Below the pieces are notes generated by a model, which had not been told where the DNA came from, ran no database searches, and saw only the letters and a list, made by a program, of their open reading frames with translations. Both the position numbers and the translations under genes were made by a program. DNA of 64,000 nt from Gammaproteobacteria bacterium (GTDB lineage Bacteria; Pseudomonadota; Gammaproteobacteria; Eutrophobiales; Eutrophobiaceae), in NCBI GenBank assembly GCA_965116495.1, contig OZ220696.1, positions 480,001 through 544,000 of the forward strand, written 5' to 3'. This document shows, in pieces, positions 46,205 to 48,397 of this stretch. Position 1 is the stretch's first letter. Each line of letters begins with the position of its first letter.

Positions 46205-48397
46205 ATGCAATATATATCAGGCGCCAATCCCATAAGAGCTTTCCTTGCTACCGTTCTATTGCTTGTTGTTGCCGCCGGCTTACATGGATGTGGAAAAGAG
46301 GAAGGACACGGTCCGCCGGCAGGTGATATGGAAAATGCAACAGCTCGACCCGGGAATATTGAAGATGCGCAAACAGACCGTCTTCAATCGGTAACCCATG
46401 CACGGGCGCTCGATGCAACCAATGACGTGGAAAACTGGTTACTGCACGGGCGCACCTATAACGAGCAGCGTTTCAGTCCGCTCGATCAAATTACCAGGGA
46501 CAATGTCAAGCGCCTGGGTGTGGCCTGGGCGCTCGATATACCGAGCACGAACGGTCTTGTAGCGACACCGATCATCGTCGATGGAACCCTGTATTTAAGC
46601 GCGCCGTTCAGTGTCATCCATGCCGTCGATGCAGTATCAGGCGAGCTTCTCTGGTCTCATGATCCACAGGTTAAACTGGGTTTAAGCGTCACCGGTTCCT
46701 GGGTGTCTCGCTGGAACCGGGGCGTGGCGGTATGGAATGGCAAAGTGATTGTCGGTACCGGTGACTGCAGGTTGGTCGCTGTCGATGCGGAAAAGGGAAC
46801 CCCCGTCTGGGACGTTGAAACCTGTGACAGCAGCGCCGGCTACGGGATCACCGGTGCACCGAGGGTGGGCGACGGCAAGGTATTCATAGGCAACGCCGCG
46901 GCTGATTTTGGTCTTCGTGGTTATGTCACGGCCTATGATGCCGACTCCGGTGAGCAACTGTGGCGTTTTTACACGGTTCCCCGCGAGCCTGCGCTTGGCC
47001 AGGAAACGGAAGTCCTGGAAATGGCCGCGCAGACATGGAGTGGGGACGTGTGGCACCAGTTCGGTGGGGGAGGTTCAGCCTGGGATTCAATGACATTTGA
47101 TAGTGAATTAAACCGGTTGTACATAGGAACTGATGGCGCACTTCCCTGGGACACGGATTACAGGAACCCGGAACAACTGGACAACCTGTTCACCAACTCC
47201 ATTATTGCCCTGGACGCAACGACAGGCGAATACCTGTGGCATTACCAGACCGTCCCCGCTGACGAGTGGGACTATAACGCGGCTGCACACATGATCCTTG
47301 CCGATATGGAGATTGAAGGTAAGAGCCGCAAAATCCTGATGCAGGCGCCGAAGAATGGTTTCTTTTATGTCATCGATCGCACGACTGGCGAACTGCTGTC
47401 GGCGGACAACTATACGACAGTGACCTGGGCCAGCCACGTTGACCTGGAAACAGGCCGGCCCGTAGTCAATCCTGCCGCCCGGTACACGGACGCCGAAACC
47501 GGAGAGACGGTCATCTACCCCTATATATGGGGCGGTCACAACTGGCATCCCATGAGTTATAACCCTGACCTGGGCCTGGTTTATATCCCGGCAATCGATG
47601 TTGCCGGAAAGTTTCGAAAGTTACCTGGTCTGGATAAAGGCTTCAGCCTGCAAACCAATCCTTACGGCACCGGCGATGGCAGGTTGAACAAGGGCAATGT
47701 GTTGGGCAAGCTGGTAGCCTGGGATCCGGCGACCCAGTCGGAACGCTGGTCGCAGGAACAGCTGTTGCCATGGAATGGGGGCGTGCTGTCGACGGCGGGT
47801 GGTGTTGTGTTTCAGGGCAATGCAGAAGGCAAGTTCAACGCCTATGCAGCCGACAGTGGCGAATTACTGTGGACCATGAAGACCGGCTCGGCAATCCAGG
47901 CGCCGCCGGTAACCGTTCGTATCAATGGTGAACAACTGGTCATTATCCCGGTGGGATGGGGTGGTCCACAACGCCTGTGGATCCCGCAACACAATGCTAC
48001 TGACGAAGCCAAAGGCAAGAGCCGCTTGGTCGCTTTTAAGCTGAATGGTGAGCAAGCTCTACCGGTGCAGGCATTGGAGCAAGCGCCTTTCCCGGAACCA
48101 CCGGAACAATATGCAGATGAGGACATGATCTCGAAGGGTGAATTCCTGTTTCTGGATATCGGTTGTGCCTGGTGCCATGGCATCGACGCTGCGGGTGGCG
48201 GTGGCTCGGTTCCCGATTTGCGTTATCTCACGAAGGACAAACATGCGGCATGGGAAGCAATCGTCCTGGGTGGCGCCTACCGGCACAAGGGCATGCTTTC
48301 ATACAAGGACACGCTCAGCGCAGAAGATTCAGAGGCAATACAAGCCTATGTAATCGACAGGGCCTGGGAAGCATACCGCGCGGCGCCAACAAAATAG
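46205..48397 (+). CDS. Quinohemoprotein (PQQ + heme c) dehydrogenase, type II ADH fold, lupanine-hydroxylase-like; lipoprotein
   Basis: Lipobox LHGC, NRGVAVW, EWDYN, GGHNWHPMSY, heme motif CAWCH. There is no vicinal CC; a C-x18-C pair is present instead. Confidence 0.92.
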   Translation: MQYISGANPIRAFLATVLLLVVAAGLHGCGKEEGHGPPAGDMENATARPGNIEDAQTDRLQSVTHARALDATNDVENWLLHGRTYNEQRFSPLDQITRDNVKRLGVAWALDIPSTNGLVATPIIVDGTLYLSAPFSVIHAVDAVSGELLWSHDPQVKLGLSVTGSWVSRWNRGVAVWNGKVIVGTGDCRLVAVDAEKGTPVWDVETCDSSAGYGITGAPRVGDGKVFIGNAAADFGLRGYVTAYDADSGEQLWRFYTVPREPALGQETEVLEMAAQTWSGDVWHQFGGGGSAWDSMTFDSELNRLYIGTDGALPWDTDYRNPEQLDNLFTNSIIALDATTGEYLWHYQTVPADEWDYNAAAHMILADMEIEGKSRKILMQAPKNGFFYVIDRTTGELLSADNYTTVTWASHVDLETGRPVVNPAARYTDAETGETVIYPYIWGGHNWHPMSYNPDLGLVYIPAIDVAGKFRKLPGLDKGFSLQTNPYGTGDGRLNKGNVLGKLVAWDPATQSERWSQEQLLPWNGGVLSTAGGVVFQGNAEGKFNAYAADSGELLWTMKTGSAIQAPPVTVRINGEQLVIIPVGWGGPQRLWIPQHNATDEAKGKSRLVAFKLNGEQALPVQALEQAPFPEPPEQYADEDMISKGEFLFLDIGCAWCHGIDAAGGGGSVPDLRYLTKDKHAAWEAIVLGGAYRHKGMLSYKDTLSAEDSEAIQAYVIDRAWEAYRAAPTK

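Follow-up and report, generated by a model that had tools for sequence, protein, structure and literature searches.

Lupanine 17-hydroxylase (cytochrome c) (LUH; EC 1.17.2.2, Pseudomonas sp., Q934G0, LUH_PSESP) is described as a periplasmic dehydrogenase containing pyrroloquinoline quinone (PQQ) and heme, which acts on an amine C-H bond and is made with a 26-amino-acid signal peptide (PMC6208669). The same source names an LUH relative on a plasmid of Paraburkholderia sprentiae and reports a putative sparteine enzyme 76% identical to LUH; extracts of a sparteine degrader also gave a 17-oxo product, for which the authors suggest a second oxidation by the same enzyme (PMC6208669). PQQ enzymes are usually treated as alcohol or sugar dehydrogenases, and among the papers found LUH, together with its putative sparteine counterpart, is the only one attacking an amine. 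Where two adjacent (vicinal) cysteines form a ring through a disulfide, that ring has been tied to the passage of electrons to cytochrome c (PMC12997753); LUH functions without it. A 64,000-nucleotide stretch of contig OZ220696.1 (positions 480,001 to 544,000, referred to here as the window), from a Gammaproteobacteria bacterium of the Eutrophobiaceae, carries on its forward strand at 46205..48397 an open reading frame for a 730-amino-acid quinohemoprotein, P0001, that also has no such ring. Comparison of its residues, its kinship and the neighbours of its relatives suggests that it belongs with LUH and may oxidize an amine.

The predicted structure identifies P0001 as a type II quinohemoprotein in fold and domain order, with an eight-bladed PQQ beta-propeller, a C-terminal cytochrome c domain, a single CXXCH and a Met ligand. 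The protein matches the TIGR03075 profile at 559 bits (cut-off 480), its AlphaFold (AF2) model from a 146-row alignment has a mean predicted local distance difference test score (pLDDT) of 91, and Foldseek returned 1kv9 and 1yiq as top structures (template modeling, TM, scores 0.83-0.92); an ESM Atlas search gave generic PQQ clusters only. The heme c attachment motif CAWCH lies at residues 654-658 (48164..48178) and the predicted distal heme ligand, from alignment, is M697 (48293-48295). Cysteines occur at positions 29, 188, 207, 654 and 657 and nowhere else. The first-pass annotation of this DNA had noted that the vicinal Cys-Cys is replaced by GSWVSRWNRG (residues 164-173, 46694..46723), and this is confirmed by the four best matches in the PDB (1yiq, 1kv9, 1kb0 and 8gy2), all quinohemoprotein alcohol dehydrogenases (ADHs), in which the loop reads CC-D-x-V-[NS]-RG and neither 188 nor 207 is Cys. 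The annotation had likewise located the Cys codons at 46766 (TGC, C188) and 46823 (TGT, C207), 19 positions apart, as well as EWDYN and CAWCH, and each is found where it was placed.

The claim that LUH lacks the vicinal pair and has a Cys pair of matching spacing also stood: in the Q934G0 sequence, Cys are limited to positions 18, 150, 169, 612 and 615, there is no CC in the corresponding loop, and Cys150 and Cys169 align with C188 and C207 of P0001 (46766..46825). The LUH pair is reported to form a disulfide, and a C188-C207 disulfide would be expected in P0001 by analogy. A second Cys pair in the Comamonas testosteroni quinohemoprotein ADH (1kb0) was considered and ruled out by alignment with P0001. 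Among 364 distinct homologues of 600-1000 amino acids, retrieved with P0001 and the P. sprentiae LUH relative as queries, so that the proportions are biased by query choice and are not population frequencies, 258 combine both cysteines with absence of CC, CC is present in 87 (86 of them with neither the C188 nor the C207 equivalent) and 19 show neither pattern; the spacing is exactly 18 residues in 249 of the 258. By this comparison, C-x18-C without CC is the mark of a whole large family and not of lupanine activity, which corrects the first-pass annotation. A separate heme-bearing PQQ group (P0256, P0284, L118 and relatives) has neither the CC ring nor C-x18-C, and mostly retains the Glu, Asn and Asp ligands of ADHs.

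The first proposal, that P0001 belongs with LUH and not with the CC-type ADHs, is borne out in the best trees and by shared residues. A FastTree analysis of 201 rows united all 117 C-x18-type rows and one other in a clade of 118 that includes LUH (support 0.997), and in a quick IQ-TREE of 53 rows the family (31 rows) had a Shimodaira-Hasegawa-like approximate likelihood ratio (SH-aLRT) of 99. Within it, the LUH-containing branch had an SH-aLRT of 100, with P0001 outside that branch, and forcing the P0001 group inside the LUH orthologue group was rejected by the approximately unbiased test (p-AU 1.9e-39). When the constraint tests were repeated after dropping 30 trait columns and one long-branch row, the tree uniting the family with LUH was still best, and grouping of P0001 and its relatives with Pseudomonas ADH-II relatives (p 0.0007) or with four other CC-type proteins (p 3e-5) was rejected. 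Membership of P0001 in an LUH-like family is thus well supported by the trees and shared residues, although the branching order within the family is not. By the same comparisons P0001 is not an LUH orthologue, and a quinolizidine substrate therefore appears unlikely.

Residue comparison of 117 family rows with 47 CC-type heme rows showed that P0001 and LUH share V119, W166, C188, C207, F227, D234, S291, D310, G311, W721 and Y724 against the CC consensus. Position 119 is Glu in 79% of CC-type heme rows and Val in P0001 and LUH; position 166 carries Trp in LUH and throughout 89% of the family rows, as against Cys in CC-type enzymes; position 234 (46904..46906) is Glu in 85% of CC-type heme rows, a metal-binding residue in ADHs, and Asp in P0001 and LUH; position 291 is Ser instead of Thr; and T309-D310-G311 (47129..47137) replaces the V/T-G-N of ADHs, as TDG does in LUH, with Asp for Gly at 310 and, at 311, Gly for an Asn found in 98% of CC-type heme rows. 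Residues R172, T216, W293, K383, N446, W447, H658 and M697 are unchanged in P0001 relative to the ADHs. The ADH Glu, Asn and Asp at these positions are metal ligands, and of this set P0001 retains the Asp alone (D234, G311, D356). As judged by alignment with the solved enzymes and the roles of these residues in ADHs, the metal site would have been rebuilt around D234, D310 and D356, with the Glu and Asn ligands replaced.

Position 356, in the EWDYN motif (residues 354-358, 47264..47278), divides the family further. It corresponds to the catalytic Asp of ADHs and is Asp in P0001 but Asn in LUH; it is Asn in 45 of 61 rows of the LUH branch and Asp in 41 of 55 rows of the P0001 branch. The first-pass annotation had named EWDYN as the active-site motif, and its reading needs correction here: since P0001 keeps the catalytic Asp that LUH, with GSNMS at this point, replaces by Asn, the motif is ADH-like. 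Lanthanide enzymes have an Asp two residues past the catalytic Asp (PMC5487730). That residue is absent from P0001, which has N358 there, and is present in 32% of family rows. A third branch of the family, comprising L044-L049 and the greater part of L143-L220 and acidobacterial wherever the records carry a name, has a Q-T-E-N-N-H-type motif for the whole of WDY, and so is left without any catalytic Asp. There is also a divergent paralogue (L025:5515-7656) in which Gln replaces the Glu ligand and the catalytic residue is His; it adjoins a linalool-dehydratase-like gene.

The neighbours of relatives support an amine-linked role. Orthologues of 73-74% identity in two genomes (G140 and G141) sit directly behind genes of the N-methylglutamate cluster, with mgsABC-like genes and gmaS (TIGR03105, 675 bits; cut-off 470) upstream in G140; in G141 the genes immediately upstream are gmaS, amt and those for sarcosine-oxidase-like subunits. 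A sister paralogue of 70% identity lies behind a spermidine-dehydrogenase-like gene, whose product matches PDB 7d9f (E 1e-161), in 6 of 7 genomes with upstream DNA, and precedes a linalool-dehydratase-like gene in 8/8 genomes examined; flavin amine oxidases and an AmaA/PuuB-like oxidase are often near these loci. More distant paralogues accompany GcvT-fused flavoproteins, aldehyde dehydrogenases and class III aminotransferases, and in genome G020 a Rieske oxygenase gene precedes the 91% orthologue; among NCBIfam profiles its product matches glycine betaine monooxygenase best, though below cut-off. The linalool-dehydratase-like protein itself (about 550 amino acids; L024:6609-9067, with equivalents in 7 other genomes) usually has a DsbA-like partner, and this pair was not found in the source genome.

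These associations were counted with 12 marker proteins (including gmaS/mgs/mgd, spermidine-dehydrogenase-like proteins and amine oxidases) at a distance of 8 kb, with CC-type genes as controls, of which a scan of the genome collection gave 64 among 76 scored genes. In the bacterial family of the source, an amine-catabolic marker was near 28 of 40 family genes (12/16 genomes), compared with none of 10 CC-type genes there, 1 of 64 elsewhere (1/74 in total) and 15% of random windows of the source genome, an enrichment that is overstated, and is an indication rather than a test, because the markers were picked from these neighborhoods, the genomes are related to one another and some flanking sequences are short. 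A Cupin_3 gene was near 26/40 family genes versus 0/74 CC-type genes and 0.9% of random windows.

From this evidence P0001 is read, at what we judge to be even chances, as a periplasmic PQQ/heme c dehydrogenase of an N-H-bearing amine, yielding an imine; the candidate substrates would likely be secondary or N-methyl amines, such as a polyamine or small alkaloid. Besides the caution attached to the marker counts, several observations weigh against this interpretation. All 12 amine-enzyme markers are absent within 8 kb of the P0001 gene and of its 91% orthologue, gmaS of the source genome is about 410 kb away, and outside the source's bacterial family a marker was near only 2 of 13 family genes. 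P0001 is more similar to CC-type ADHs (46-49% identity) than to LUH (41%, 269/660), and D356 and the remainder of the PQQ site match those of alcohol dehydrogenases. The loss of CC in the separate PQQ group that mostly keeps ADH-type ligands means that such loss alone is not proof of an amine substrate. The test did not reject a grouping of P0001 and its relatives with the CC-type heme enzymes as a whole (p 0.052), and a looser constraint that also permits a basal place within the family outscored the quick tree, which makes the position of P0001 within the family unsure. The expectation that P0001 would cluster apart from ADHs held in the best trees, which group it with LUH, with that one alternative grouping left unrejected.

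The main rival also places P0001 in amine catabolism, but with oxidation of a C-O bond: an aminoaldehyde (as its hydrate), carbinolamine or amino-alcohol, itself the product of a flavin amine oxidase or spermidine dehydrogenase, would be converted to an amino acid or lactam. The retained catalytic Asp agrees with this, as does the sister paralogue directly behind a gene like that for spermidine dehydrogenase (SpdH), an enzyme whose products are aminoaldehydes. PQQ-dependent ADHs can oxidize aldehydes (PMC5487730), and the 17-oxo product of the sparteine degrader, with its suggested second oxidation, points in the same direction (PMC6208669). Several paralogue clusters (L041, L125, L129), however, already include an aldehyde dehydrogenase of the NAD type, no primary amine oxidase is found among the immediate neighbors of the G140 and G141 orthologues, and the sole characterized member of the family attacks an amine directly. 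This rival is held to be possible though doubtful.

Two further readings are less likely than either of these. In one, P0001 would be a hydroxylase of the lupanine/sparteine type that removes hydride from a tertiary cyclic amine to give an iminium ion, which is then hydrated. The C-x18-C pair, W166, D234 and TDG that P0001 has in common with LUH are in its favor, together with DNA about 95% identical to parts of the gene in two sponge metagenome runs, sponges being rich in alkaloids; but placement inside the LUH orthologue group was rejected, position 356 is mostly Asn in the LUH branch and mostly Asp in the P0001 branch, and 41% identity to LUH contrasts with the 76% of the putative sparteine enzyme (PMC6208669), so that this reading is unlikely. 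An ordinary broad-range type II ADH that has lost the vicinal disulfide is very unlikely: although the TIGR03075 cut-off is passed, the best solved relatives are ADH IIB/IIG and QH-ADH, and a grouping with the CC-type enzymes as a whole escapes formal rejection, P0001 has other residues in place of the Glu and Asn ligands, Glu119 and the CC ring, features that 79-100% of CC-type heme rows conserve, the genome also has two canonical paralogues, and the family has radiated within amine-related islands, with as many as 6 paralogues in one genome. The original proposal of an amine or alkaloid dehydrogenase rather than an alcohol dehydrogenase therefore survives in part, with amine neighbors of relatives for it and, P0001 being outside the LUH orthologues, a quinolizidine substrate improbable.

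At the locus itself, control of the P0001 gene by a TetR-family regulator appears well supported, since a predicted operator is conserved beside related TetRs, in agreement with the earlier annotation. A divergent TetR gene (45393..46103, reverse strand) encodes a protein that shares 43-46% identity with the TetRs found next to family paralogues elsewhere, in other genomes, and a palindromic, operator-like TACGTCA-nn-TGACK at 46129..46144 overlaps promoter-like sites on both strands, with a second half-site at 46150-46158. This palindrome occurs once in the 4.34-Mb genome, at window position 46129, and in 8 of 227 fetched loci. One of the 8 is that of the window, and the remaining seven are spread over six further genomes; all six encode a TetR of 43-46% identity, either at that locus or no more than about 40 kb away, and in them the palindromes precede family paralogues, receptors, cupins or an aldehyde dehydrogenase. 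A promoter scan alone was not above chance (10 found versus 7.8 +/- 3.0 expected), nor was an operator search allowing 2 mismatches, so exact-match conservation alone counts. In the 91% orthologue locus of G020 (L022:11896-11941) most of tetR and half of the operator are deleted, leaving a 46-nt tetR remnant, and this orthologue may therefore be expressed without repression. In the window, the 3' end of tetR is joined at 45230-45400 by the truncated beginning of a short-chain dehydrogenase gene, which suggests a local deletion.

P0001 is predicted to be lipid-anchored and periplasmic, with a signal peptide ending in the lipobox LHG-C29 (46205..46291, forward strand); orthologues start about 9 codons later. 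The lipid anchor proposed at the outset gains from a lipobox Cys seen by eye in P0001 and its 12 closest matches (P0001-P0013), but it is not distinctive, as a loose lipobox pattern is found in 47/87 CC-type and 70/258 family proteins. The source genome encodes pqqE and gmaS, two separate CC-type heme ADH paralogues, and a ResB/CcsA (system II) pair for cytochrome c maturation (G000:C1:2995754-2998854); a search with the CcmF profile gave nothing over cut-off there. The sponge metagenome contigs, about 95% identical to parts of the P0001 gene, indicate that close relatives occur in sponges; no RNA dataset was listed among those carrying it.

A TonB-dependent receptor gene (48458..50848) follows 60 bp downstream on the same strand, and its product is 94% identical to the receptor behind the G020 orthologue; the receptor behind the G141 orthologue was examined as its orthologue and rejected at 38% identity. 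Beyond it, on the reverse strand, is a gene for an EutQ-like cupin (Cupin_3, 50895..51389), a recurrent neighbor of the family, and a second copy at 43914-44381 means that Cupin_3 genes flank the locus on both sides. Elsewhere in the window are two more PQQ enzymes of glucose/quinate type (19421-21391 and 36681-38828), without the membrane-anchor part of the profile and below the TIGR03074 cut-off; two tannase/feruloyl-esterase genes and an ATP-binding cassette (ABC) transporter with a CrtC-type lipocalin (24484-32343), the transporter block of which recurs beside sister-paralogue clusters; and, 8-15 kb downstream (56623-63292), Rieske dioxygenase subunits, genes for a tripartite ATP-independent periplasmic (TRAP)-type transporter, a DUF1989 protein and an agmatinase-like gene.

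If P0001 is an amine dehydrogenase, its action may be pictured as follows. The TonB-dependent receptor would import the substrate to the periplasm, and substrate or product might release TetR from the operator that conservation shows. LUH requires Ca2+, and in P0001 PQQ and a divalent metal, probably Ca2+, would be bound in the rebuilt D234/D310/D356 site. W166 would cover PQQ in place of the vicinal disulfide of ADHs and may bind the ammonium group, and C188-C207 would be a structural disulfide joining loops. D356 would take the N-H proton as the alpha C-H leaves as hydride to PQQ C5, a step proposed because of the ADH mechanism and the contrast with LUH, where the tertiary amine has no N-H proton and Asn is found. 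The imine might then hydrolyze to an aldehyde and a shorter amine such as methylamine, or hydrate to a carbinolamine, with electrons passing through the His658/Met697 heme c to the respiratory chain, a route established for type II quinohemoproteins.

A wider proposal is made only tentatively, with more doubt than assent: that the family consists of mis-annotated PQQ/heme c amine dehydrogenases of which LUH is the sole studied member, and that P0001 founds an Asp-retaining branch cleaving secondary or N-methyl amines (polyamines, host alkaloids), feeding methylamine to the N-methylglutamate pathway, and radiated into several substrate-specific paralogues per genome in sponge-associated bacteria. 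If so, the class of amine that each member attacks could be read from position 356, whether this is Asp, Asn, His, Glu or the QTENNH variant. No description of the LUH-like family was found in the literature searched, most subscription papers and all supplements being outside its reach. If the branch oxidizes amines, hundreds of annotations as 'quinohemoprotein ethanol dehydrogenase' would be wrong, and the family could be picked out by a signature of no CC, C-x18-C, D for E, and TDG/TDS for GN. It would also offer an oxygen-independent periplasmic route for breakdown of amines and alkaloids, and could supply biocatalysts that form imines. With Asp and Asn both occurring naturally at 356, the role of the catalytic base becomes directly testable, and so does electron transfer without a vicinal disulfide.

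In summary, there is one characterized relative of P0001, LUH, and it belongs to a different branch. The two share a clade in the best trees and a PQQ propeller with one CXXCH. Both lack vicinal CC, have the C-x18-C pair at aligned positions, carry Trp in the CC loop, and replace the Glu ligand by Asp, VGN by TDG and the Glu at 119 by Val. P0001 differs in being 41% identical and on a separate branch, in keeping W-D-Y, and with it the catalytic Asp, at the place of S-N-M in LUH, in the methylamine and polyamine catabolism suggested by the neighbors of its relatives, and in having a lipobox in place of the 26-amino-acid signal that is cleaved in LUH (PMC6208669). With the type II ADHs (EC 1.1.9.1; Pseudomonas putida HK5 ADH IIB, 1kv9, and IIG, 1yiq; C. 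testosteroni QH-ADH, 1kb0) it shares fold and domain order (TM about 0.8-0.9, 40-45% identity to these structures), R172, T216, W293, D356, K383, N446-W447 and the heme His/Met, but it is without their adjacent-cysteine ring and Glu/Asn metal ligands and has the extra Cys pair. Like the lanthanide PQQ-ADHs PedH and XoxF, P0001 has extra acidic residues at the metal site (D234, D310, D356); unlike PedH, with WDFDG, it has Asn358 at the position of the lanthanide-defining Asp.

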